From: Phenylobacterium sp.
GTDB taxonomy: Bacteria; Pseudomonadota; Alphaproteobacteria; Caulobacterales; Caulobacteraceae
Assembly (NCBI RefSeq): GCF_030651185.1
Contig: NZ_JAUSCJ010000041.1
Coordinates: 93,693-157,692, forward strand
Reading direction: 5' to 3'
Length of the DNA stretch: 64,000 bases
The notes beneath the pieces are model-generated. The model saw nothing but the letters and a program-made list of their open reading frames with translations, had not been told where the DNA came from and made no database searches. This document shows, one piece after another, positions 8,019 to 29,062 of this stretch. The first letter of the stretch is position 1. The number at the start of each line of letters is the position of its first letter. The position numbers were made by a program, and so were the translations under genes.

Positions 8019-8750
8019 TCAACCTCCGCTGAACAATCCCGCCAGCAGGTTGATGGTGAGCGCCAACACCACGGTGTTGAAGGTGAAGGCCACGATCCCG
8101 TGGATCGTGCCGATCCGCCGCAGGGGCTTTGAGGTGAAGGCGATGTCGGCCGTCTGGGCCGCCACCCCGATCACCGTCGAGAAGTGCACGAAGTCCCAGT
8201 AGTCGGGCTCCTCTCCGCCCGGAAAGGCCAGGCCTCCCGCCACCGCCTTGCCCGTCGGTTCGGCTTCGGGGGCGTAGTACTCGTGGGCGTAGTGCAGGGC
8301 GAAGATCAGGTGGACCATGAACCAGGAGGCCGCCACCGTCCCGAAGGCCAGCGCCACGCGGCCGGCCCTTTCCAGGCCGTGGCCACCCCTGGCCGTTGAG
8401 AGCTCCACCCCCACCGCCGCGATGCTGAAGGCCGCCGCCAGGACGACCACCGCCAGGATCATGCCCTGGCCCTGGTCCTGCGACGACGCTTGCCTGCGGA
8501 TGTCCGCCGGCGACTTTCCGATCATGAAGGCGATCAGGGCGACGATGAAGACCAGGGCCGTGGCGTCCCAGCCGAAGATGGCGCTGGTGCTCCACTGAAA
8601 CGTCGTCAGGCTGGCGCAGGCCAGCCACACCGCCAGGCCCACGGCGAACGAGGCCAGCAGCCGCGGACGGGCCAGGAACGCCCCGATCACCATGGGCCGA
8701 TGCTTGCGGGGCTTTCTGGCGGGATGCTTGGCGGCGGCTTGGCGGGCCAT
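8019..8750 (-). CDS. DUF1345-like membrane protein
   Basis: ALHYAHEYY, LAFPG.EEPDYWDF, IG...QTAD motifs, several TM helices. Confidence 0.8.
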   Translation of the reverse strand: MARQAAAKHPARKPRKHRPMVIGAFLARPRLLASFAVGLAVWLACASLTTFQWSTSAIFGWDATALVFIVALIAFMIGKSPADIRRQASSQDQGQGMILAVVVLAAAFSIAAVGVELSTARGGHGLERAGRVALAFGTVAASWFMVHLIFALHYAHEYYAPEAEPTGKAVAGGLAFPGGEEPDYWDFVHFSTVIGVAAQTADIAFTSKPLRRIGTIHGIVAFTFNTVVLALTINLLAGLFSGG

Positions 8751-8847
8751 GGGGTTTCGCTCCGTGTCGACAGGGGTATGAACGCGCGGCGCCGGGACTC
8801 AAACCCTTGCTTTCCCGCACCCTTTCGCGTATTCGCCCTCCCCTTCG

Positions 8848-9138: not shown

Positions 9139-9495
9139 ATGGCACGCGTTAAAAGGGGCGTTGTCGCCCACGCCCGTCACAAGAAGGTTCTTGAGCAGGC
9201 CAAGGGTTTCTACGGCCGCCGCAAGAACACCATCCGCACGGCCAAGGCTGCGGTCGACCGCGCCGGTCAGTACGCCTATCGCGACCGCAAGGTCCGCAAG
9301 CGTAATTTCCGCTCGCTCTGGATCCAGCGCATCAACGCCGCGGCCCGCATCGAGGGTCTGACCTACGCGACCTTTATCCACGGCCTCGACCTGGCCGGGA
9401 TCGAGATCGACCGCAAGGTCCTGTCGGACATCGCGGGCAACGACCCGGTTGCGTTTAAGGCCATCGCTGAGAAGGTTCGCGCCGCTCTGGCTTGA
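9139..9495 (+). CDS. rplT: 50S ribosomal protein L20
   Basis: [20 protein letters not shown]. Confidence 0.98.
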
Positions 9496-18363: not shown

Positions 18364-19692
18364 ATGACAGTTACGGAAAGCGGCGGTGAACTTCCGTCTG
18401 AGGCCCTGGCGCCGGGATTGACCCCCATGCAGCGGTTCAGGGCCATCCTGGGCGGATCGGCGGGCAACTTCGTCGAATGGTACGACTGGTTCGTCTACTC
18501 CTCCTTCGCCCTCTATTTCGCCAAGCACTTCTTCCCCAAGGGCGACGAGACCGCCCAGCTGCTGCAGGCCGCCGCGGTGTTCGCCGTGGGCTTCCTGGCC
18601 CGGCCCATCGGCGCCTGGTTCATGGGCCTCTATGCCGACCGCGCGGGGCGAAAGGCCGCCCTGACCGTCTCGGTCTCCATGATGTGCGCCGGCTCCTTCG
18701 CCATCGCCATCATCCCCGACTATTCGATGATCGGAACCGCCGCCCCCGTGGCGCTCGTCCTGGCGCGCCTGGTCCAGGGTCTGTCCCTGGGGGGCGAGTA
18801 CGGCGCCAGCGCCACCTACATGTCGGAGATGGCCGGCAAGAAGCGCCGTGGCTTCTGGTCGAGCTTCCTGTTCGTCACCCTGATCCTGGGCCAGCTCACC
18901 GCCCTGGCCGTCCTCATCCTGCTTCAGAACGTGCTGTCGCCGGAGGATCTGGCCCAATGGGGCTGGCGCATTCCCTTCGCCATCGGCGGGGTCCTGGCCA
19001 TCGTGGTGTTCTGGATCCGCACCGGCCTGGAGGAAAGCCAGTCCTACCTGACCGCCCAGGCCGAGGGCGCGGAACGCAGCCGCACCATGCTGTTGTTCGT
19101 GAAGTTCCCCAAGGAGACGGCGACCATCTTCGCCCTGACCTCGGCGGGGTCCTTGGCCTTCTATGCCTACACGACCTACATGCAGAAATTCCTGGTCAAC
19201 ACCTCGGGCTTCACCAAGGACATGGCCACCGCGATCACGGCCGCCGCCCTGCTGGTCTACATGATCGCGCAGCCGGCCTTCGGGGCGCTGTCCGATGCGG
19301 TTGGCCGCAAGACCACCCTGGTGGCCGCCTTCCTGCTGGGGACCATCTTCACCTATCCCATCTTCTCGAAGATCGCGGTGACCACCGACCCCACCATGGC
19401 GTTTGCCCTGATGTGCGCCCTGGTGCTGATCCTGTCGGGCTACACCGCCGTCAACGCGGTGCTGAAGGCTGAGCTGTTCCCCGCCCACGTCCGGGCGCTC
19501 GGCGTCGCACTGCCCTACGCCACGGCCAACGCCATCTTCGGCGGCACGGCGGAGTATGTCGCCCTGTGGTTCAAGAAGGAGGGCATGGAGAGCGGCTTCT
19601 ATGTCTATGTCGCGACGATCATGGGCCTGGCCTTCCTGGTGGCGCTGACCCTGCGCGACACCAACAAGCACAGCCTGATCACGGAGGACTAG
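18364..19692 (+). CDS. MFS metabolite:H+ symporter (KgtP-like)
   Basis: GNFVEWYDW, RPIG, ADRAGRK, QGLSLGGEYG, AELFP. Confidence 0.92.
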   Translation: MTVTESGGELPSEALAPGLTPMQRFRAILGGSAGNFVEWYDWFVYSSFALYFAKHFFPKGDETAQLLQAAAVFAVGFLARPIGAWFMGLYADRAGRKAALTVSVSMMCAGSFAIAIIPDYSMIGTAAPVALVLARLVQGLSLGGEYGASATYMSEMAGKKRRGFWSSFLFVTLILGQLTALAVLILLQNVLSPEDLAQWGWRIPFAIGGVLAIVVFWIRTGLEESQSYLTAQAEGAERSRTMLLFVKFPKETATIFALTSAGSLAFYAYTTYMQKFLVNTSGFTKDMATAITAAALLVYMIAQPAFGALSDAVGRKTTLVAAFLLGTIFTYPIFSKIAVTTDPTMAFALMCALVLILSGYTAVNAVLKAELFPAHVRALGVALPYATANAIFGGTAEYVALWFKKEGMESGFYVYVATIMGLAFLVALTLRDTNKHSLITED

Positions 19693-19693
19693 T

Positions 19694-20392
19694 TTGCCGC
19701 TCGCGCTCTCGCCCCTGGACTTGACGGCGCTCATCGTCTTCGCCGTCGCGTGGCTGGCCTATGAGCCGCTGCTGAAGGCCGCCGCCCGGGGCAAGGGCGC
19801 CATCAACACCGACATGACCGTCATCCGGGTCGCCTGGATGAAGAACATGGCCGGGCGCGAGAACAAGTTCATGGACGGCCAGCTCCTGGGCCACGCCCTG
19901 AACTCCGCCTCCTTCTTCGCCTCCTCCAACCTGATCCTGATAGCCGGGGCCGCGGGCGTGCTGTTCGGGGGCGAGAGCACCTTCCGCTCGGCCTCCAGCC
20001 TGGTGGTGATCCAGACCTCCACCCGCCTGGTGTTCGAGTTGCAGATCGCCCTGGTGCTGGTGGCGCTCGCCCGCGGCCTGCTGGATTTCATCTGGTCGAT
20101 CCGCCAGATGAACTACTGCATCGCCGCCGTGGGCGCGGCGCCCGACAGCGAGGACGCGGCCTTCAAGACCGCCTATGGCGAGGCCGCCGCCCGGCTGCTC
20201 AATCCGGCCCTGTCGGCCTTCAACGCCGGCGTTCGCGGCTACTACTTCGCTTTGGCGGCCGCGGCCTGGCTGTTTGGCCCCATCGCCTTCCTGGCCGCCA
20301 CCCTCGGTGCGGTGAGCCTGCTGCTCTGGCGTCAGCGCCGCTCCAAGGCCGCCGGCGCCATCGCCGACCTGCGCAAGCTGCTGGGGGGCTAA
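19694..20392 (+). CDS. DUF599-like membrane protein
   Basis: R..WM..M, SFFASS, FN.G.RGYYFA motifs; TTG start. Confidence 0.8.
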   Translation: MPLALSPLDLTALIVFAVAWLAYEPLLKAAARGKGAINTDMTVIRVAWMKNMAGRENKFMDGQLLGHALNSASFFASSNLILIAGAAGVLFGGESTFRSASSLVVIQTSTRLVFELQIALVLVALARGLLDFIWSIRQMNYCIAAVGAAPDSEDAAFKTAYGEAAARLLNPALSAFNAGVRGYYFALAAAAWLFGPIAFLAATLGAVSLLLWRQRRSKAAGAIADLRKLLGG

Positions 20393-20400
20393 CTCCTTCA

Positions 20401-20545
20401 ATTCCTCCCCCAGGCCGTAGGCCGTTTCGGGGGAGGTGGATCGCAGGCCAGGCCTGCGAGACGGAGGGGGTTTGGGCCGTGGATGTGGCGAGGCCCCAGC
20501 CCCCTCCACCGTTTCGCGGTCCCCCTCCCCCGGTGGGGGAGGAAT
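20401..20545. repeat. 145-bp CIR-like palindromic element
   Basis: attcctcccc / ggggaggaat ends; near-identical same-length copy at 30764-30908. Confidence 0.85.
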
Positions 20546-20546
20546 G

Positions 20547-20714
20547 TTAGAGCCCCAGCTCTTTGCGTTGCGCCCAGGTCAGCTTGGCCGCGACCAGGCC
20601 GTGGGCCGTCGTCAGGCAGTCGCTGACCTCGGCGGCGTCCATCCCCGCCAGGTCCTCGAACCACACCCACCTGGCGCGCGCCAGATAGGGCGCGGAAGGC
20701 CCGATCCCAACCAT
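20547..20714 (-). pseudogene. C-terminal fragment of an MmcQ/YjbR-family gene
   Basis: SAPYLARARWV...TAHGLVAAKLTWAQRKELGL resembles the family C-terminus; only 55 codons remain. Confidence 0.65.
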
Positions 20715-20738
20715 CTTGCCACAGGTCGCCGACGCCGC

Positions 20739-20766
20739 TTGCCCGGGCGAGCTTCCTGAGTATATT
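20739..20766 (+). promoter_or_regulatory. Sigma70-like promoter of tRNA-Ser
   Basis: TTGCCC-N16-TATATT. Confidence 0.55.
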
Positions 20767-20807
20767 GCGCGCCTTCGCGGGCGGCCTGAGGGCGGCTTGC
20801 GACGGCC

Positions 20808-20897
20808 GGTGAGGTGGCGGAGTGGTCGATCGCGCACGCTTGGAAAGCGTGTTTAGGTGAAAGCCTAACGAGGGTTCGAATCCCTCTCTCACCGCCA
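20808..20897 (+). tRNA. tRNA-Ser(GGA)
   Basis: 90 nt; GGTGAGG/TCTCACC acceptor stem, CACGC-TTGGAAA-GCGTG anticodon arm, long variable arm, GTTCGAAT loop, encoded CCA. Confidence 0.97.
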
Positions 20898-21312
20898 AAA
20901 CTTCCGGTCCAACCGGCTCCCAATTTCACAGGTCGTGAAGCCCTCGGAATTCGCGGCGGATTTCCGCAGCTCCGGAGTTTGGCCTCCCACAAAGCCCGAT
21001 TTCAGAGGCGCTCATGAGCGTTTCGGGCCGCGTCTCCACCCGCGAGCGCCCCAGACCTGATCGGGTCGAGGCGGAGAGTCCCGACAATTTAAAGTCGCGA
21101 CCACCAATGCAAAGTTGAATGATAGCTGAAGAGAGGGTGTCTATTTCTGGTACGGTATCAAATACTATTAACTAATATTCCCTCTAGGCGTGTAATTTAT
21201 AGATAATATAGATTTTCGTTTTGAATAACCGAGACTTCTCTTTAGTCCCCTGCCCGACGTATTTGCGTAACGGCCTGCGCGCGGGCCGATTCTACTAAGG
21301 GGCGAATTCACC

Positions 21313-23298
21313 ATGAGCGAACTGATCACCAACGGCGGCTTCAGCACCGGCACATTTGCGGGCTGGACTGCGGGCAGCAACCAAACCAACCCGTATCAGG
21401 CCTCCTTCGGTGGGAGCGGTAATTCTCAGGTCGTCAATTCCACCTCAGGCCAACCGGCCTGGTTCATGCGTAACGTCGCAGGCGGCAGCGCCACTCCGAT
21501 AAGCGGCTACACGGCGTTTAATGGCTTCGACGGCAGCCCGGGTAAGTTCACCCTGAGCCAGACAATTCACATTGATGAGACCGTGTCCTCGGCCATCTTG
21601 AAGTTCGATTTCGCTTCCACCACCAGTTACAGTGGTGCGGCTCGCACCTTTGATGTTGTTCTCACCCAGGGCGGCGTCACAAAGGCCAGCTTCTATCATT
21701 TTGTGGCCCCGTTCGGCGACTCGGCCTGGAGCCCGGTCACGCAGGTGTCGCTGGATATCGGTGCGACCTTGAATTCGCTCAGCGCGGGTGACTACACGCT
21801 GACCTTCGTCGAGGTCATCCCCAGCAACTTCACCGGCCCCGGCGCCTTCGGTCTGGACAATATCTCGCTCAACGCCACCTTCGGCCCCAGCAACGTGGCG
21901 CCCGTCGCCGTCGCCGACGCCTTCGCGGCGACCGAGGATGGCGCGGCGGTGACGCTTAACGTGCTGGCCAACGACACTGACGCCGACGCCGGCGACACCA
22001 AGACCCTGGTCTCGGTCAACACCACGGGCACGACGGGGTCAGCGACCGCCAACGCCGACGGCACGGTGACCTACAATCCGGGCGCCAACTTCCAATCGCT
22101 GAAGGCCGGCGCCACGGCCACCGACACCTTCAGCTACACCCTGAAGGACACCGCGGGCCTGACCAGCACCACGACCGTCACCATGACCGTCACCGGCGTG
22201 AACGACGGTGTCATCGCCGTCGCCGACAGCGGCGCGGCGACCGAGGATGGCGCCGCGGTGACGCTGGACGTCCTGACCAACGACACCGACGTCGATGCGG
22301 GCGACACCAAGACCCTGGTCTCGGTCGACGCCACCGGCGCCCTGGGATCGGTGAGCGCCAACGCCGATGGAACCGTGAGCTACGTCACGGAATCGGCCTT
22401 CCAGAGCCTGAAGGCCGGCGCGACGGCCACCGACACCTTCAGCTATACGGTCCGGGATTCCGCCGGCGCCGAGAGCACGGCCTCGGTGACCATGACGGTC
22501 ACCGGCGTGAACGACGGACCGGTCGCCCTGGCGGACGCGGGGTCGGTTTCCGAAGACCAGTCGGTGATCCTCAACGTTCTGGCCAATGACACCGATATTG
22601 ACACTGGCGACCTGAAGACCCTCGTTTCCGTGTCGGCCACCACCAGCGGCGCCAGTGTCGCCATCGTCGATGGCAAGGTGGTTTACACCGCCGACGCAGA
22701 CACCCAGGACCTGTTGACCGAGGGTCAAACCGCGACTGACAGTTTCACCTATGTGATGGCCGACTCTGCGGGCGCCACCAGCACTGCGACGGTCAGCGTG
22801 ACGGTTGGCGGCGTCGCCAACGGGGCCAATATTCTTGGCACGGTGAAGTCCGATGTTCTGTTGGGCACGGCGGCCGACGAGCGTATCGAGGGCGGCAACG
22901 GCGACGACACCGTCAATGGCTACGACGGGGCCGACAACCTCTTCGGCGGCAACGGCGGCGACCGGCTGTTCGGCGGGGCGGGCATCGACCAGCTCTCCGG
23001 CGAAAATGGCTCCGACACTCTCGACGGTGGGGCCGGCAATGACATCCTGACTGGCGGGAACGGGCCGGACCGTTTCGTCTTCGGCGCCGGCTTCGGCAAC
23101 GATACGATCACCGACTTCAAGGCGCAGAACGACACCATCCAAATCGACCACAACCTGGTGGGCGGCTTCGGCGCCCTGATGAGCCACGCGTCCCAGGTCG
23201 GGAGCTCGGTGGTGATTGCACTCGACGCCGCCCACTCGATCACGCTGCAGGGCGTGAACCTGTCGAGCCTGAGCAGCAGCGACTTCGTCTTCTCCTGA
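21313..23298 (+). CDS. RTX-type secreted adhesin-like protein: N-terminal beta-rich domain, three Ig/cadherin-like repeats, GGxGxDxxx repeats
   Basis: Repeats start at 21892, 22201, 22510 (309-bp period, AxxDxxxxxED...NVLANDTD); about seven Gly/Asp nonapeptides; no Sec signal. Confidence 0.9.
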
Positions 23299-23306
23299 TG
23301 ACGGTG

Positions 23307-23334
23307 GACGGGGCGGCTTTACGGCCGCCCCGTC
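23307..23334 (+). terminator. Stem-loop after the RTX gene
   Basis: gacggggcggc / gccgccccgtc; no strong T-run. Confidence 0.55.
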
Positions 23335-23597
23335 TCAACTAGCTGGGGACACCCCCTGCGGGAGGCGCCTGACTATTGGACCTCCCCAACCCAAAGGGGC
23401 CTGCCCTATTCTTTGATCTGACCGCGCGGTGGCGACAGGCTGAAGCCAAAGAGTTCGCCAAGCGAAGGCGCACGGGCATGCTCATTGATTTCCCTCGGCA
23501 GCTGAGGACCGGGCGCGCCGGCAGGTACCGGCCATCCGTGGAGGAGTCCCACGAGTGGCTTGAGAGTTGTGGAGACAAGTCGACCTCCGCCTGTCCC

Positions 23598-23627
23598 CAC
23601 CGCCAAAACTTCCGGCCCAACCGGCTC
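23598..23627 (+). repeat. att-like direct repeat of the tRNA-Ser 3' end plus flank
   Basis: caccgccaaaacttccggcccaaccggctc matches 20890-20919 at 29 of 30 positions. Confidence 0.9.
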
Positions 23628-23704
23628 TCGGCCTTGGGGACGTTGCAAGCTCCGACAAACGCACGCGGGGCGAACGGAATGCCGCCCGCCTCGCGCGTCC
23701 TGGG

Positions 23705-24262
23705 CTACTTCACGCAGCAGCGGTTGATCTGCAGCTTGGCCGAGAGGACGCGGGTGTCGTCCTGCACATAGAAGCTCAGGCGATTGTCGGCGTTCATGGC
23801 GGCCAGGGCCGCTGCGCTCATGACGTAGACGCGGGTGGTGGGCTGGTTGATGGCCACCGGGAAGGCCGTGTAGACCGCGCCATTCAGGCCGGGGAAGGCG
23901 ACCCCGTTGCTCATGACCCCCATCGAGTCATTGCCGGCGTCCGAACCGGCGGCCGAGGTCCCGGCCTGGTTGGCCCGCAGGGTGATGGTCAGGGTGGCGC
24001 CCAGGATCTGGCAGCACTGGGGCGGCTTCCACTGGAAGGTGTGCAGGAAGAACTTGTTGGGCGCGGCGTCGTTGAGGCCCGCGCGGGCGATGGCGAGCAT
24101 GTCGGGCCGGAAGTCGGCGTTGATGGGCGTCGGCGTGCTCAGGTCGATCGTCTCATAGGACGGCTTTGGGCAGAGCATGGGACGGCCGGTGTCCTGACCC
24201 AGGGCCATGCCTGCCGACAGCAGACAGCCGATCAGGGCGGTCATGAAAATCGTGCGCTTCAT
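23705..24262 (-). CDS. Secreted Cys-containing hypothetical protein (185 aa)
   Basis: MKRTIFMTALIGCLLSAGMALG signal-like; C, CC, CC pattern; high GC3. Confidence 0.8.
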   Translation of the reverse strand: MKRTIFMTALIGCLLSAGMALGQDTGRPMLCPKPSYETIDLSTPTPINADFRPDMLAIARAGLNDAAPNKFFLHTFQWKPPQCCQILGATLTITLRANQAGTSAAGSDAGNDSMGVMSNGVAFPGLNGAVYTAFPVAINQPTTRVYVMSAAALAAMNADNRLSFYVQDDTRVLSAKLQINRCCVK

Positions 24263-24365
24263 CGGTCTACACCTCAATTGGATCGCCCAGGGTTTGCGCG
24301 AACTGAACAGAGGTCGTTGGGCCGAGGGAGGCGGTTCAAATCGCGCGCCCCCCTCGCGCCGCCAT

Positions 24366-24788
24366 CTAGTTGAACTTCGGACCAACCTTTTCGATCTTGT
24401 CGCGCGGGCTGATCAGCACGCAGGTCTGGCCGACCACCCGGTAGGGCCGGACCACGATATTCTGAGCGTAGGTCCCGATCGGTGCGCTGTTGGGATGCTT
24501 GAAGGTCAGCTTGTACGTGCCCTCAGGCAGCTGGAACTTGCGCACGGTTCCGGTGCTGTTCAGAGGGGCGGCCGGAAACATGGTGGCCGGCCCGCTGGGC
24601 TGCTTGCGGAAGGTGTACTCCAGGCCGACGTCGGCGAAGGAGAACAGGTTGAGTTTCACCGTGTAGACGCCCCCGCCGCCGGGGGCGATCTCGCAGATAT
24701 TGGTCGCCGAGGTGACCACCTGGGCGTCGGCGGACCCCGCCAGGGCCAGCCCCGCGGCGGTCGCCGCCATCATCATCCTGAGCCTCAT
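24366..24788 (-). CDS. Secreted hypothetical beta-rich protein (140 aa)
   Basis: ggaga SD; signal peptide ending ADA-Q; one Cys near each end of the mature chain. Confidence 0.8.
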   Translation of the reverse strand: MRLRMMMAATAAGLALAGSADAQVVTSATNICEIAPGGGGVYTVKLNLFSFADVGLEYTFRKQPSGPATMFPAAPLNSTGTVRKFQLPEGTYKLTFKHPNSAPIGTYAQNIVVRPYRVVGQTCVLISPRDKIEKVGPKFN

Positions 24789-25019
24789 GTCGTTTCTCCA
24801 TAGGCGGGCGCGCGGGACTGAATCCCGGCGACCTGGGGGGATGGAAGGAGACACTCCAGCCTGCTGCAACCGGCGCGAGCCCTCTGGCCTGCGACGGCTG
24901 CGAGGGACGCAGACCGTCCGCATCTCACCCCCAGCAGGTCGTTGGAAGCGGCGCCAAGGTTCAATCAGCCAGGGTTGTGCGCGCCTTCGCGGGCGGCCTG
25001 AGGGCGGCTCGCGACGGCG

Positions 25020-25107
25020 GGTGAGGTGGCGGAGTGGTCGATCGCGCACGCTTGGAAAGCGTGTTTAGGTGAAAGCCTAACGAGGGTTCGAATCTCTCTC
25101 ACCGCCC
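25020..25107 (+). pseudogene. Degenerate second copy of tRNA-Ser(GGA)
   Basis: Identical to 20808 onward until the T-arm; 2-nt deletion (aatctctctcacc vs aatccctctctcacc); ends GCCC rather than GCCA; 5' flank 24978-25019 also duplicated. Confidence 0.9.
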
Positions 25108-25210
25108 AAATTCTGCGATAAAACAAGATGTTACGGGCGTCGAAGGGTGATGTCCTTGGCGCATTGGCGGTCATGACGCCGCCTCCGGAACGGAGGCTCG
25201 GACGTCTCTC

Positions 25211-25906
25211 TCAGCGCGGCGCCCGGGGCCTGTGAGAAACGCGCCATGACGCGCGCCACGACACGGGAGACAGCGCCACCCGTCCGGGATCGGCCGCCCG
25301 CGGCCAACTGAGCTGGACTCGGACGACGCCCTCACCGCCAAAACGTCCTGTCAGGAGATCAGGGGCCCAATCACCTTGCTCGGGCCGGCGGGGGGGTGAC
25401 GGCTCGAACAAGCGCTCGCAGGGCAGCATGTCGTCGGGAAATTCCTTGGGCTCGATGTCGCCGGTGGCCAGCCCCGCGAGGAAATCGGTGAGGCCGCAAT
25501 CGAACGCCTCATACTCCCCCATGCCGCGATCCCAGACCACGACGCCCCAGGCGTCGGGTGGGCCGCGCGGGAGCCAAAGAAGATAGTCGCCGAAGTCGGT
25601 CTTCCCGAACGGCAGCAATCCGCCCGGCTCAGGCCACAGGGGATAGGGGCGATCCTCGTCATCCCGGAGGACGTCACAGATCACGCGAACTTCGGATTGC
25701 AGCCTCACATAGGGACTCCAGGACACCGGCACGTGGACTCCCACGAACTCCATAAAGCTGCCGAACCCGTAGAGCCGGACGAAGTCCTTGTAATCCTGGG
25801 GCAGGCCCGTTCCGAGGTCAGCCTCAATCGCTTCCCAAGGTCCGGCATAGGTTTCATCGGGCGCCACCGGCGGCGGGACCACCCTGATCAGGTTTTCAAT
25901 GGTCAC
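25211..25906 (-). CDS. SMI1/KNR4 (SUKH) immunity protein
   Basis: WEAIEADLGTGLPQDYKDFVRLYG, LLPFGKTDFGDYLLW; GTG start with ggagg SD overlapping the toxin stop. Confidence 0.88.
   Translation of the reverse strand: MTIENLIRVVPPPVAPDETYAGPWEAIEADLGTGLPQDYKDFVRLYGFGSFMEFVGVHVPVSWSPYVRLQSEVRVICDVLRDDEDRPYPLWPEPGGLLPFGKTDFGDYLLWLPRGPPDAWGVVVWDRGMGEYEAFDCGLTDFLAGLATGDIEPKEFPDDMLPCERLFEPSPPRRPEQGDWAPDLLTGRFGGEGVVRVQLSWPRAADPGRVALSPVSWRASWRVSHRPRAPR
25331..25344 (+). repeat. Short att-like copy of the tRNA-Ser 3' end
   Basis: ctcaccgccaaaac identical to 20888-20901. Confidence 0.65.
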
Positions 25907-26852
25907 GCTTCCTCCCCGCAGGATTCTCGATGATGCGAGCGATGGGCGCCCCGCGAGAACCAAGCGCAGCGAGCAGAATTCTCGCAGGCGCGAGCACTCC
26001 CGCATTGTACAGCGGCATTGCTGTATACTGGATGATTTCCCCCGCCTTGACCCGCCGCCCCGTCGCGTTCTCGAAGCGCTGCATCAGAGATGAGTTGGTT
26101 GGATTTTGCGTCAATGTGACGAGGTCTAGTGGGCTCCGACCTGAACCTCCAAGTTGCTTTGCTTGGAGGTGTCCCCGCGCTTCATTGTACTTTGTCCCGT
26201 CGCCTTGCCAACCGGGCGGGGTCACCCGCCGGTTGGCCTTCGTCCCAGAGCCGAGAGTGGAGGCTGTTAGAGTCGCAACCAACCCCGTCGCCTGTCCAAG
26301 CGGGGTGGGGCGACCGTGTCTGACCGCAGGCTGTTTGACCAAGGGCGGCGCCAACACTGGTCGTCTGGCCGTCGGCGCAAGAGGGGCGAACCTGGGACGG
26401 GGTGCAGCCCCGAGGAGTGCGGCATCCGCCGCACTTCCGCCTATCAGCGCCCCGTTGCGCGCCTGTGGGGATGCGTTCGCGAGCGTGGCGATCGCATAGG
26501 CGGCGCTCCCGAGCGGGTGGTCCGCCATGAAGAGGGCGCGAGTGACCGCCTGCCTCCGGTCTGCGCGCACGGTGGGCGAGATCGCCGGATCATCAACGTG
26601 CACCAAGACGTCGGCGCGCCCATTGTCGACTCGCCTGTAGGTTCGACCGCCGATCGTGACATAGGGGTTCGGACGAGCGGCTCGATTGAGCAAGGCGAGA
26701 CGCCCATAAGCTGAGGGGAATGATCCCGCAGCTAGAGGCGTCGGCGCGGCTATCGCACTCTGCCCTGCACCACGCTGTCGGACCAATTTGCCATGCGGGT
26801 CACCCAAAGGATTAGGAACGGAACGCGGCTTTCCATTCGGCATCTCCGCCAT
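25896..26852 (-). CDS. Polymorphic-toxin-like protein with C-terminal DNA/RNA non-specific (His-Me) endonuclease
   Basis: PPGWQGDGTKYNEARGHLQAKQLGGSG, LVTLTQNPTNS..M..FE motifs; SUKH gene directly downstream. Confidence 0.85.
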   Translation of the reverse strand: MAEMPNGKPRSVPNPLGDPHGKLVRQRGAGQSAIAAPTPLAAGSFPSAYGRLALLNRAARPNPYVTIGGRTYRRVDNGRADVLVHVDDPAISPTVRADRRQAVTRALFMADHPLGSAAYAIATLANASPQARNGALIGGSAADAALLGAAPRPRFAPLAPTARRPVLAPPLVKQPAVRHGRPTPLGQATGLVATLTASTLGSGTKANRRVTPPGWQGDGTKYNEARGHLQAKQLGGSGRSPLDLVTLTQNPTNSSLMQRFENATGRRVKAGEIIQYTAMPLYNAGVLAPARILLAALGSRGAPIARIIENPAGRKRDH

Positions 26853-26938
26853 TCAACATCTCTTTCGCTCGCGATTTCGCCGGCGCGGCCTTGGCTGCCG
26901 CATCTGGAAAATCTGCCACAAGCTCGCTCTTTTGTCTA

Positions 26939-26953
26939 GAACAAAACAAGAAC
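26939..26953 (-). promoter_or_regulatory. Alphaproteobacterial LexA (SOS) box
   Basis: GTTC-ttgtttt-GTTC on the minus strand, abutting a TAGACA -35-like hexamer (26933-26938), 86 nt before the toxin ATG. Confidence 0.8.
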
Positions 26954-27074
26954 ATGTTCGGCATCGAGACTTTTGCGGTGGCCTCGTCAACGCTCGGCGG
27001 GTCACACACCGGCCGAGTTCAAGACTTCGGCCCACCAGCCTCTCCAGAAGGGGACGGCGCCGCTTCGGGAATCC

Positions 27075-27917
27075 CTAGTCCCCGGCCATCTCCCTCAGGT
27101 CCCGCTCGGCGGCGATGTAGCCGAAGGCGTACTTGCTGCGACCGCGGAGGATCTGCTCGAACACCTCGCGGGCGCGCGCCGTGTCGCCATTGTAGAGATG
27201 CCAGTTACCCACGCCATAGCCCTGGGTGGCGTAGAGGGTCTCCAGGTCGTGGATCACCTGGGAGCCGATCTCCGGGGTCAGCAGGTCGTCCGGCGCGAAT
27301 TCGCCCCGGTACATCCGCAGGCGGCGATAATAGGAGGGGCCTTCGACGAAGGCCTCGTCCGGCAACCCGCTCGGGACCGTCGCCAGCACCTGCTCGGCGC
27401 CCACCTCGTCGCCCTTGCGGCGCAGGGTCATGTAGAGCCAGTCGTTACAGGCGGTCAGCCCGTCATGGTCGCCGGGCGCCACCCAGTCCAGACAGCGCCG
27501 ATAGGCGGCCTCGGCCGCATCCCAGTCCCCCAGCAGATAATGCGCCAGGGCCAGGTGGTACCAGGTGTTGAACTGGATGCTGGTGGCGGGCACCGGCAGC
27601 TCGTTGCCCTTGCCGTCCGGCTCGATCCACTCCGGCTTGCCCTCGATCAGCTCCGCGGCGCGGGCCAGGTCGGCGAGCCCCTCGGCGAACCGCCGGGTCG
27701 ACAGATAGCGGTGGCCGCGCTGGCGCAGGAGTTCGAAGGAGTCGGGGAACCGCTCCAACCCCTCGCTGAACACCGCGATGGCCTCGTCGATCTGGTAACG
27801 GAACCCCAGCACCCGACCGTACCAGACGGTGTTGGGCAGGGAGGGATCGTCCTCATGGTTGGATCGGGCGCTGTCGAGGGTGCGGCGGGAGCGGTCCCGG
27901 AGGCTGTCTTGCGTCAT
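27075..27917 (-). CDS. TPR-like repeat protein
   Basis: Helical repeats, e.g. WYHLALAHYLLGDWDAAEAAYRRC, YGVGNWHLYNGD..RA. Confidence 0.75.
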   Translation of the reverse strand: MTQDSLRDRSRRTLDSARSNHEDDPSLPNTVWYGRVLGFRYQIDEAIAVFSEGLERFPDSFELLRQRGHRYLSTRRFAEGLADLARAAELIEGKPEWIEPDGKGNELPVPATSIQFNTWYHLALAHYLLGDWDAAEAAYRRCLDWVAPGDHDGLTACNDWLYMTLRRKGDEVGAEQVLATVPSGLPDEAFVEGPSYYRRLRMYRGEFAPDDLLTPEIGSQVIHDLETLYATQGYGVGNWHLYNGDTARAREVFEQILRGRSKYAFGYIAAERDLREMAGD

Positions 27918-27956
27918 GACCTCAGTGAAGCGGCTGGCGCGCGATGCGTAAAGCCC

Positions 27957-28451
27957 TCAGCCCGCGGCGGCGCGCGGGGCCTCCGACTTGGCGTAGCGCT
28001 GGCTGACCCGGCGCAGGCCCTCCAGGATGGCCTTGGTGCCGTTGGCGTCCTTGCCCGCCTCGGTGTGCAGCAGCAGGCGGAAGGCCCGCAGGTGGACGGC
28101 CACGGCGTTGGCGTCCCAGGTCTTGCGGGTCCGCAGATAGTCGGTCAGGTCGGCCAGGCTCACCAGGGCGGTGTCGATGGGCGCCAGGCCGCAGGCGGTG
28201 GGCACGCCGATCGCCGCGCTGGCGATGGCGTAGAGCTCGTCGGCGACGGCGGCGTCATACTCGCCATTGGCCCGGCCAGCGCACAGCTCGGCCTGATCAA
28301 GCGTCACCCGCAGTTCATCCAGGCACTCGGCGCGCAGGCTTTCCAGCCCCGCCCCCGCCCGCTTGACCGCGTCGGCGACGGGAACCCCGCCAGGGGTGCG
28401 CAGCAGCTTGGCCAGCCGCACCACGGGAATATGAATCTTTACAGAGCTCAA
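27957..28451 (-). CDS. cheE: CheE-like chemotaxis-associated protein
   Basis: RLAKLLRTPGG...A...L N-terminus and AVAVHLRAFRLL; coupled to the upstream receiver gene. Confidence 0.6.
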   Translation of the reverse strand: MSSVKIHIPVVRLAKLLRTPGGVPVADAVKRAGAGLESLRAECLDELRVTLDQAELCAGRANGEYDAAVADELYAIASAAIGVPTACGLAPIDTALVSLADLTDYLRTRKTWDANAVAVHLRAFRLLLHTEAGKDANGTKAILEGLRRVSQRYAKSEAPRAAAG

Positions 28452-29062
28452 AGTGTCACCCGCCGTGTCTTCAGCATGCCGTCGATGCTGTCCTGTTCCA
28501 TGTTGGGCTCGTTCGCCTCGCCGACGTCGCCCACCAGATCGTCGCGGCGCCGGCCGACCTGGCCGGCAGGCACGCCCTCGTTCTTGAAGCGGCGATCGGG
28601 ACCCATATAGTTGTCACACTCCACGAACCGCCGGCCTTCGCGGGCGATCCAGAGCACCCGCTCCAGCACCGTGATCGGGGTCAGCGGCTTGGTCATGACG
28701 AAATGGGCGCCGCAGTCGCGGGCCTTCTGCACGGCGTTGCCCGGGGTATGTCCCGCGGTCAGCAACACCGGCACGTAGCAATTGGGTTCGATGCGCGAGC
28801 GGCGCAGCCACCTCACGAAGTCATAGCCCTCGCCGGTCGGCCCCAGCGCGTCGGCCACCACAAGGTCCAGCTCCACCTTGGCCACCAGGCCCTGGGCTTC
28901 TTCCACGTTCTCGGCGCGATGCAGCACCTTGGCGCCGAAGCCGGTGAGGATCTGCACCAGGATGCTCATGCCCATGGTCGACTCCTCGAGGATGAGCACG
29001 GAAGCTCGCTCAAGGTTGAATCGGGCGCGGGAATCGGGACTGAGACCCATGCTGTCCTTCAT
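28448..29062 (-). CDS. CheY-like receiver with Cle-type c-di-GMP-binding Arg-rich tail
   Basis: Receiver fold (LILEE, VVAD, MTKP) followed by YMGPDRR...GRRRDD. Confidence 0.8.
   Translation of the reverse strand: MKDSMGLSPDSRARFNLERASVLILEESTMGMSILVQILTGFGAKVLHRAENVEEAQGLVAKVELDLVVADALGPTGEGYDFVRWLRRSRIEPNCYVPVLLTAGHTPGNAVQKARDCGAHFVMTKPLTPITVLERVLWIAREGRRFVECDNYMGPDRRFKNEGVPAGQVGRRRDDLVGDVGEANEPNMEQDSIDGMLKTRRVTL

Follow-up and report, generated by a model that had tools for sequence, protein, structure and literature searches.

A composite genomic islet without a recombinase, probably formed by tandem accretion of minimal integrative elements at a tRNA-Ser(GGA) gene in Phenylobacterium

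In a metagenome-assembled genome (MAG) of a groundwater Phenylobacterium, the tRNA-Ser(GGA) gene is followed by an array of small gene modules punctuated by copies of the tRNA 3′ end. The array occupies positions 20898-27075 of the 64,000-nucleotide stretch analysed here (the window; contig NZ_JAUSCJ010000041.1, positions 93,693 to 157,692), and contains an RTX adhesin gene, two orphan genes (orfA and orfB), a displaced tRNA copy and a toxin-immunity pair. It is probably a composite genomic islet without a recombinase, which arose as integrative elements, minimal or decayed, accreted in tandem at an attachment (att) site in the tRNA gene (tDNA). The array was built by successive insertions directly 3′ of the tRNA, each of which left a copy of the att core distally. 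This core comprises the last 8-18 nucleotides (nt) of the tRNA and about 22 nt of its trailer, with 30-40 nt being duplicated. The inserts form a stack whose newest member lies closest to the tRNA, and later deletions occurred independently of the repeats.

The four copies of the tRNA 3′ end that an initial annotation had reported, made from the letters alone, are all present (Table 1). They stand above chance: CACCGCCAAAAC, allowing up to one mismatch, occurs three times in 64 kb, in each case at this locus, against an expectation of 0.17, and none of 100 shuffled sequences reached three occurrences. The first two copies (20890-20919 and 23598-23627) bound the RTX cassette and are identical at 29 of 30 positions, as had been claimed; of the 30 nt, eight belong to the tRNA 3′ end and 22 to the trailer. 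The fourth copy, CTCACCGCCAAAAC at 25331-25344, extends to 22 nt with 91% identity (20888-20909 and 25331-25352). The third belongs to a duplication of about 132 nt that comprises a 42-nt leader and the whole tRNA; a gap-free repeat of 123 nt with 98% identity (20766-20888 and 24978-25100) was recovered by repeat search. Therefore, the four repeats are not equivalent punctuation marks as originally described, and the pseudo-tRNA copy, correctly spotted, is larger than was then supposed.

Comparison among strains places the limits of the RTX cassette. Strain states were taken from Logan contigs of public sequencing runs (X codes), which were examined as assembled contigs, and from exact-protein look-ups (L061, L063 and L065). 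The site is empty in L065, where the tRNA and a single core copy (CACCGCCAAAATTTCCCGGCTGACCGGCTC) are followed contiguously by the orfA flank; the RTX cassette is cleanly absent, and attL, attB and attR align exactly over the 30-nt core. X13 provides a second, diverged contig with an empty site, and in a further contig of this run 23598 follows another sequence, whose last 18 nt are those of the tRNA 3′ end. X3 and X20 carry an extra cassette of at least 2 kb, placed between tRNA and RTX cassette. A new core copy, CACCGCCAATCACTCCGGTCCAACCGGCTC, forms its right edge and abuts the left arm of the RTX cassette, and the newest insert is thus the one next to the tRNA. Finally, L061, L063, X7 and X8 carry a different cassette of 1657 nt, which replaces 20899-23664 and encodes a protein of 388 amino acids (aa) with ten HemolysinCabind repeats.

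The ancestral state of the site was approached through sister species. The gene upstream of the tRNA encodes a DUF599 protein (19694-20392, plus strand), and this gene was used as a probe in GTDB species genomes, giving 60 Phenylobacterium and Caulobacteraceae loci. In L013, L026 and L028, the TPR gene that forms the right-hand flank of the array lies about 50 nt after tRNA-Ser(GGA), and in L011, L017 and L019 the gap between them is up to 1.4 kb. Since tRNA and TPR genes are nearly adjacent in these sister species, 20898-27075 is an insertion relative to them. In every species, the variable sequence starts directly after the CCA of the tRNA. The genes for the SUKH immunity protein and the toxin lie directly at tRNA-Ser(GGA) in L005, L007, L008, L024 and L044. 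From this distribution, the toxin-immunity pair is taken to be the oldest resident of the array, and not the late capture that had first been envisaged. In L005, the tRNA 3′ end aligns directly to core copy 4 of the window; the 222-nt segment that precedes this copy is hence an indel with a tRNA-end copy on either side. The pattern recurs in a second species pair, in which L021 has a 1.4-kb insert without an integrase and with an 11-nt tRNA-end repeat, and L009 has an empty site. Candidate distal tRNA-end repeats in other relatives were rejected, as matching 11-12-mers were equally common upstream and downstream and mostly due to chance; only the L021/L009 pair held.

The duplicated tRNA gives a further view of this history. 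Positions 24978-26953, which include the leader, pseudo-tRNA, 222-nt segment, fourth repeat, SUKH gene and toxin gene, are colinear with the native tRNA locus of L007 and L008 at 75% identity, and the pseudo-tRNA has a 3′ flank orthologous to that of the native tRNA at these two loci. The colinearity identifies the pseudo-tRNA module as a former tRNA locus that has been displaced inward. The leader differs among species, yet only two differences separate its two copies in the window, and the duplication hence arose within this lineage. The duplicated segment starts directly after the -10 box of the promoter-like site of the first copy. This site is conserved in the alignment of relatives, and neither promoter scan nor alignment found one upstream of the second copy. 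The intact tRNA is 100% identical in the closest relatives. The second copy scores 40.1 bits in Rfam against 57.3 for the true gene; it has lost 2 nt of the T-stem, reads CCC for CCA and has no promoter-like site, whereas a functional tRNA has an intact cloverleaf, CCA or a processable 3′ end, and a promoter. The distal copy of L061 bears a different T-stem lesion (47.1 bits), from which it follows that the distal tRNA has been decaying independently in two lineages.

An order of events can be proposed. An ancestral arrangement of tRNA and TPR genes would have received the SUKH-toxin pair, then an insert of which the 222-nt segment would be a remnant, then orfA and orfB together with a duplicate of the whole leader and tRNA, whose promoterless distal copy would since have been decaying, and then the RTX cassette; in some strains, a different cassette would have come to occupy this slot or a further one would have been added. 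Each insertion would be a conservative site-specific recombination between the core of a circular element (attP) and the tRNA-proximal core. The most likely catalyst would be a tyrosine integrase, because the identity block of 30-40 nt is long, which argues for this class over a large serine enzyme. The integrase may have been supplied in trans by another genomic element, or may have been deleted from each element. The duplication of leader and tRNA could stem from an element whose att region held the whole tRNA locus, for instance after aberrant excision, or equally from homologous recombination. Deletions independent of the repeats would have trimmed the array later. The elements may have decayed in place or have moved as small circles through an integrase acting in trans.

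Recombinases are encoded at the same site in relatives. In L032, a 572-aa tyrosine integrase (DUF6538 and Phage_integrase domains) lies 160 nt from the tRNA, followed by genes for a reverse transcriptase, a resolvase and a SIR2-like protein, and its attL has a 16-nt core, CACCGCCAAAACTTCC, in common with the window repeats. L035 has a P4-type integrase at tRNA-Ser(GGA). Large serine recombinases are found there in L012, L023, L042 and L054, and remnants of them in L009 and L058. Homologous large serine recombinases also lie beside tRNA-Ser(GGA) on the IMG/VR contigs L079 and L088, and low-GC phage contigs of IMG/VR carry only the tRNA 3′ end, like attP sites; a search of IMG/VR with core and trailer together gave no matches. 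The large serine recombinases of L012, L023, L042, L054, L079 and L088 form a family with 40-55% identity, in hosts of 47-68% GC. The 3′ end of the gene faces the tRNA at a distance of 350-460 nt in L023, L042, L054 and L079, and farther out in L012 and L088. A description of such a tRNA-Ser-specific family was not found in the literature searched.

Within the array and the 64-kb window no recombinase was detected by tblastn with four recombinases from relatives (E ≤ 1), in agreement with the initial annotation. A six-frame motif scan of the window gave nothing credible, its box II match being confined to a non-coding frame. All open reading frames of the array are covered by Pfam or homology, and the recombinase negative is soft for the other genes of the window, which lay outside the Pfam scan. 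Remnants from integrative and conjugative elements (ICEs) or integrative and mobilisable elements (IMEs) were not detected in the cassette arms.

Some joints in the strains depart from the repeats. In X2, X3 and X5, position 24966 is joined to 27090, and everything from the pseudo-tRNA through the toxin is missing. The TPR protein of these strains ends in DLRED, as against DLREMA(G/E)(D/G) in the window and all relatives, and this form is judged to be a derived deletion because the protein has lost its last four conserved codons. At 27090-27095, the same strains have the TPR codons CTCGCG, as in all sister species, and the window has CTCCCT; these three clustered differences, between strains whose sequences are otherwise about 0.3% apart, may lie at a recombination boundary. 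X11 has lost orfA and kept orfB, with a joint at 23658|24348 that contains 30 nt of filler. X11 also has about 2.8 kb of extra sequence between toxin and TPR genes, where L008 has about 3 kb. In X9, X14 and X18, a 630-nt deletion (25939|26570) removes most of the toxin including its nuclease domain, and SUKH is kept as an orphan immunity gene. A further joint unrelated to the repeats is 20898|23665. A candidate recombinant between the first and fourth repeats (DR1 × DR4) in X18 was rejected, as the full stretch corresponds to the second tRNA copy and spacer of the L061 type.

Several of these results weigh against tandem accretion of integrative elements. The breakpoints 24966|27090, 20898|23665, 23658|24348 and 25939|26570 ignore the repeats, and the 1657-nt cassette of the L061 type has no distal repeat. 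The serial insertion first proposed is supported by exact joints at L065, X13, X3/X20 and L005; the idea that all variation follows the repeats is not supported. A search by blastn and tblastx against all loci recovered no fragments of recombinase pseudogenes from the cassette arms, the spacer or the regions upstream of orfB and toxin; with neither a recombinase nor fragments of one, there is no direct trace of a decay of larger islands. The identity block of 132 nt is unusual for an integrase att site and fits a Campbell-type homologous crossover equally well. Finally, a possible fifth, degenerate core copy, which may represent the ancestral trailer and adjoins the TPR stop codon, is of weak significance, since its score of 21/26 is reached by 0.3% of random windows. 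An F1-like sequence, TTCCGGCCCGA, precedes the TPR stop in L008.

Homologous recombination between conserved flanks offers the first alternative. Here no site-specific recombinase would act: content would be swapped between the tRNA/P232 and TPR flanks, and the repeats would be by-products of illegitimate or Campbell-type events, such as a RecA-mediated crossover with a circle. A single homologous crossover of a circle is expected to duplicate leader and tRNA over 132 nt, and the leader is lineage-specific and near-identical in both copies. Many strain breakpoints lie away from the repeats, the three clustered differences at the 24966|27090 joint are suggestive of a mosaic ancestry, and the 5′ part of the X3 RTX gene is more diverged than its 3′ part. 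However, at least three independent insertions (window, X3/X20 and X13) exactly at the tRNA end with the same 30-40-nt core would be left unexplained, and so would the repetition of the pattern in another species (L021/L009) and the integrases of three families at the exact site in relatives. We regard this explanation as quite unlikely.

The second alternative starts from the origin of the cargo. Elsewhere in the genus, the RTX gene unit is found in at least four further chromosomal contexts, with 83-92% identity (L071, L072, L077 and L078); none of these is at a tRNA, and in them the gene is accompanied by its conserved upstream region and terminator hairpin. The orfA family is rare (17 proteins), and the orfB-orfA pair is conserved in L074 and L075, downstream of a cluster of CsgG, ECF sigma and S8 peptidase genes. 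The arms of the RTX cassette (20920-21082 and 23336-23569) have no relatives apart from a motif of about 36 nt, TGGAGACAAGTCGACCTCCGCCTGTCCCCACCGCCA, whose end coincides with the first 8 nt of core copy 2. This motif, TGGAGAC..G.CGACC.....CTG...CCACCGCCA, is found beside RTX homologues in L071 (2302-2337) and L072 (7399-7434) and in weaker form in L074; in L071 and L074 it lies just downstream of a gene for a 154-aa protein.

Genes might therefore have been excised from chromosomal loci as circles via an attC-like motif of this kind, and docked at the tRNA by an integrase encoded elsewhere, in which case the array would be an integron-like platform and a functional store rather than debris. 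Homology of the RTX unit is sharply delimited, starting at its upstream region and stopping at the hairpin, and the unit recurs in at least five contexts; the motif abuts the core in the window, and in a circularised cassette it would lie about 185 nt upstream of the RTX unit, compared with 216 nt in L071. With 1.4-2.7 kb and one or two genes each, the cassettes are small, they are free of recombinase debris, and the alternative cassettes in the same slot both encode RTX-type proteins. On the other hand, no intI-like gene or attI was found in the 64-kb window. The repeats are copies of the tRNA end and not imperfect palindromes of the attC type, having a weak dyad of 4-6 bp. The arms show no significant similarity to the flanks of L071, L072, L077 and L078, no greater than that of shuffled sequence, and colinearity of a circularised cassette with L071 was rejected, the motif being all that the two have in common; 'circular permutation' is thus a matter of the motif alone. 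The motif has no matches in IMG/VR, and was accordingly rejected as the attP of a phage or element. A degenerate scan of JGI metagenomes returned nine matches, mostly due to chance, in association with no RTX, 154-aa or recombinase genes, and three independent instances are known in all. We consider such a platform improbable.

A related, bolder proposal is that the end of tRNA-Ser(GGA) serves as a dock for tiny self-contained cassettes, copied from chromosomal loci via the motif TGGAGAC...CCACCGCCA and shuffled between strains by an integrase that no cassette ever carries. This proposal, which draws on one short sequence motif, is fairly unlikely; if true, the site would be anchored on a tRNA and functionally analogous to an integron, with secreted and antagonistic proteins as its cargo.

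The weakest alternative, an assembly artefact in which a 132-nt repeat was mis-joined and the tRNA copies came from different molecules or strains, is highly improbable: X1 Logan unitigs do break inside a 75-nt identical stretch of the tRNA copies, so that the left-right pairing rests on the original assembler, but the independent NCBI MAG L061 shows tRNA, cassette, orfA, orfB, second tRNA, SUKH, toxin and TPR on one 11-kb contig, the joints orfB-leader-tRNA and tRNA-spacer-SUKH recur in X7, X8, X9, X11, X13 and X18, and X2 and X3, with a single tRNA copy, have the P232-tRNA and tRNA-RTX joints of the window. The two-tRNA layout recurs in L061 and in Logan contigs of several runs, and cassette content at the site varies among relatives and strains, with some breakpoints at repeats.

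Tandem accretion of integrative elements has precedents with which the array can be compared. Islands in tDNA, as defined by Islander, have an intact tRNA at one end, a displaced 3′-end fragment as a direct repeat at the other and an integrase inside (PMC4383910). The array resembles them in insertion at the 3′ part of a tRNA, regeneration of the gene, a displaced end copy at the far edge and foreign composition. The intact tRNA and the displaced repeat are both present, with empty sites in L065 and X13. In contrast to such islands, there is no integrase inside the array, the inserts measure 0.2-2.7 kb, 22 of the 30 nt of the identity block lie in the trailer, and one repeat is a full leader and tRNA.

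In Streptococcus thermophilus, cis-mobilisable elements (CIMEs) related to ICESt1 have kept attL and attR and lost their integration and transfer genes (PMC5704250). In tandem accretion, new elements enter a resident att site at the 3′ end of a target gene, and mobilisation requires an integrase in trans (PMC5704250). The RTX cassette likewise has its 30-nt repeats and no recombinase, and in X3 and X20 the extra cassette adds a new core copy beside the tRNA. CIMEs stem from ICEs or IMEs by deletion and can be excised by a related integrase in trans or cis. The array differs from those described in having no conjugation or relaxase remnants, in its alphaproteobacterial host and in its single-gene modules. 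Tycheposons are defined by tyrosine recombinases and replication modules, sit at one of a few tRNA sites, and occur as arrays and remnants in Prochlorococcus islands (bioRxiv 10.1101/2020.12.28.424599). Partial tRNAs scattered in the island and cargo modules that vary among coexisting strains liken the array to their remnant arrays. It is not like the element itself, as it lacks tyrosine recombinases (by the window search) and replication modules, and its cargo is secreted or antagonistic, whereas that of tycheposons consists of nutrient uptake genes.

With chromosomal integrons, the array has in common a stack of small cassettes, a bias towards secreted and adaptive cargo, and a recombinase outside the cassettes. 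It differs in having no intI beside an attI and Pc promoter (for the 64-kb window, a soft negative), no attC ends (imperfect palindromes of about 57-141 nt) and no series of mostly promoterless cassettes, since the RTX cassette has its own upstream region and hairpin; orientation is mixed, and the anchor is a tRNA. The array is not an integron, and of the two descriptions offered by the initial annotation, an integron-like stack and eroded stacked islands, the second is the better. Composite SCCmec islands and pseudo-SCC elements (SCC, staphylococcal cassette chromosome) at rlmH are stacks of cassettes with direct repeats of the target 3′ end, some of which have no recombinase genes and rely on Ccr large serine recombinases in trans. 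The array shares with them the stacked, repeat-bounded cassettes, and large serine recombinases lie at this tRNA in sister taxa. It differs in its target (a tRNA and not rlmH), in having no large serine recombinase in the window and in an identity block longer than the SCC integration site.

The features of the array are collected in Table 1. Coding frames were picked by GC content at third codon positions (GC3) and annotated by Pfam, and the signal-peptide-like N-termini of the two orphans were judged by eye. With this proviso, the gene content is as first described, and the cargo is indeed secreted, surface or antagonism-related.

Table 1. Features of the tRNA-Ser(GGA) locus and array, in window coordinates.
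Feature	Position	Strand	Basis
Promoter-like site TTGCCC-16-TATATT before the functional tRNA copy	20739-20766	+	Promoter scan
42-nt leader 'u42', copy 1, between -10 box and tRNA	20766-20807	+	Repeat search, alignment
tRNA-Ser(GGA), intact, CCA encoded	20808-20897	+	ARAGORN; Rfam 57.3 bits
att core copy 1, attL of RTX cassette: last 8 nt of tRNA and 22-nt trailer	20890-20919	+	Repeats, attL/attB/attR alignment
Left arm of RTX cassette, non-coding	20920-21082	+	No detectable relatives
RTX adhesin gene unit, including about 230 nt of AT-rich upstream sequence and a terminator-like hairpin	21083-23335	+	Pfam, homology limits, GC dip
RTX/cadherin adhesin, 661 aa, three Big_9/cadherin-like repeats and HemolysinCabind	21313-23298	+	Pfam
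Right arm of RTX cassette	23336-23569	+	Relatives only in cassette-carrying strains
Motif of about 36 nt, TGGAGACAAGTCGACCTCCGCCTGTCCCCACCGCCA, ending in first 8 nt of core copy 2	23570-23605	+	Homology search
att core copy 2, attR of RTX cassette	23598-23627	+	Repeats, attL/attB/attR alignment
orfA, 185 aa, signal-peptide-like N-terminus, Cys-containing orphan	23705-24262	-	GC3, homology
orfB, 140 aa, signal-peptide-like N-terminus	24366-24788	-	GC3, homology
Leader u42, copy 2, without upstream promoter	24978-25019	+	Repeat search, promoter scan
Pseudo-tRNA-Ser(GGA), 2-nt T-stem deletion, CCC for CCA	25020-25108	+	ARAGORN, Rfam 40.1 bits
222-nt segment between pseudo-tRNA 3′ end and core copy 4	25109-25330	+	Absent in L005
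SUKH/SMI1-KNR4 immunity protein, 231 aa from GTG	25211-25906	-	Pfam; called as gene in L061
att core copy 4, CTCACCGCCAAAACGTCCTGTC	25331-25352	+	Repeat search; aligns with L005 tRNA 3′ end
Toxin, 318 aa, C-terminal Endonuclea_NS_2 nuclease domain (residues 186-292)	25896-26852	-	Pfam
Possible fifth, degenerate copy of the trailer part of the core (ancestral trailer beside TPR)	27019-27044	+	21/26 match
TPR protein, conserved right-hand flank	27075-27917	-	Pfam, relatives

The terminator-like hairpin of the RTX unit was identified by eye and was not called by the scan that gave the promoter-like site. Inside the RTX gene, a 309-nt tandem repeat with 78% identity (21905-22513) corresponds to the Big_9/cadherin-like domains, and the Logan contigs of all runs break at this repeat. 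The 5′ part of the X3 RTX gene is 93% identical to the window, and its 3′ part and orfA/orfB are 98% identical; this pattern suggests a mosaic gene. Neither orfA nor orfB has a Pfam match. The spacer of about 220 nt described earlier exists as the 222-nt segment but is non-coding only in part, as its right 120 nt fall in the SUKH reading frame, which passes through the fourth repeat, ends at 25211 and is called as a 231-aa gene in L061. GC content drops to 52-56% in the array, and GC3 of the toxin is 0.66 against about 0.9 in host genes.

By their sequences, the SUKH and toxin genes would form a polymorphic toxin-immunity pair: a C-terminal toxin domain is followed by a SUKH_6/SMI1_KNR4 gene with an overlap of 11 nt. 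Domain content, gene order, this overlap, a faster-diverging toxin (51-68% interspecies amino acid identity, against 62-85% for the SUKH partner) and variants with orphan immunity genes are all as in known pairs of this type. In contrast to these, the N-terminal 185 aa of the toxin contain no recognised trafficking domain, and no secretion system is encoded nearby.

Several further observations concern the tRNA and its surroundings. The trailers of tRNA-Ser(GGA) in the window (20898-20919 and 25345-25360), L005, L032 and L065 contain a short dyad at a constant offset after CCAAAA, which differs in sequence (CCGGT/ACCGG, TCCTG/CAGGA, TCCC/GGGA and TTCCCT/AGGGAA) and may be a core-type recombinase site or a processing hairpin. 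A conserved trailer hairpin was rejected: the dyads share their offset, but their energies do not exceed those of shuffled sequences except in L032. ARAGORN also called two 92-nt 'tRNA-Phe' genes on the minus strand (9315-9406 and 23110-23201, anticodons aaa and gaa), both of which are probably false positives; the second is internal to the RTX coding sequence and finds no support in the Rfam scan, whose range (19000-29000) does not reach the first.

The 154-aa protein mentioned above is acidic, and its gene is another small cargo gene seen at tRNA-Ser(GGA): it lies between this tRNA and TPR in L015 (5895-6353), L017 (10053-10511) and L019 (12686-12967), and elsewhere in L071 (1811-2275), L074 (657-1121) and L052 (1879-2337). 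Just after the TPR stop, L061 (reverse complement, 8704-8801) and X7 have a 98-nt insert at a CTAG corresponding to about 27078 of the window; it consists of two hairpins with CTAG at both ends, and resembles miniature inverted-repeat transposable elements (MITEs) or repetitive extragenic palindromes (REPs).

A second variable spot (20393-20700) lies between the DUF599 stop codon (20392) and the tRNA promoter. It includes a GC-rich, palindromic, REP-like stretch (about 20398-20545) with a metagenome k-mer depth of 100-2300x, against about 30x in its neighbours. Strain variation at this spot includes a 159-nt skip (X2), a 434-nt replacement and a YjbR gene (L061, L065 and X7), and the spot measures about 2.5 kb in the sister species L001, L002 and L007. 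A minus-strand open reading frame at 19679-20509 was ruled out as the flanking gene by GC3.

The mechanism of accretion is not new, and it is the units that are unusually small. In natural populations from groundwater, sediment and freshwater, the gain and loss of one-gene modules for surface and antagonism functions at the end of a tRNA gene can be followed strain by strain, and nearly all intermediate states persist in public data. The site offers a tractable att core of 30-40 nt together with candidate recombinases, namely the tyrosine integrase of the L032 type and the large serine recombinases associated with tRNA-Ser. If the array did arise by tandem accretion and decay, as is probable, the picture established by streptococcal CIMEs, staphylococcal SCC elements and Prochlorococcus tycheposons would extend to the Caulobacteraceae.

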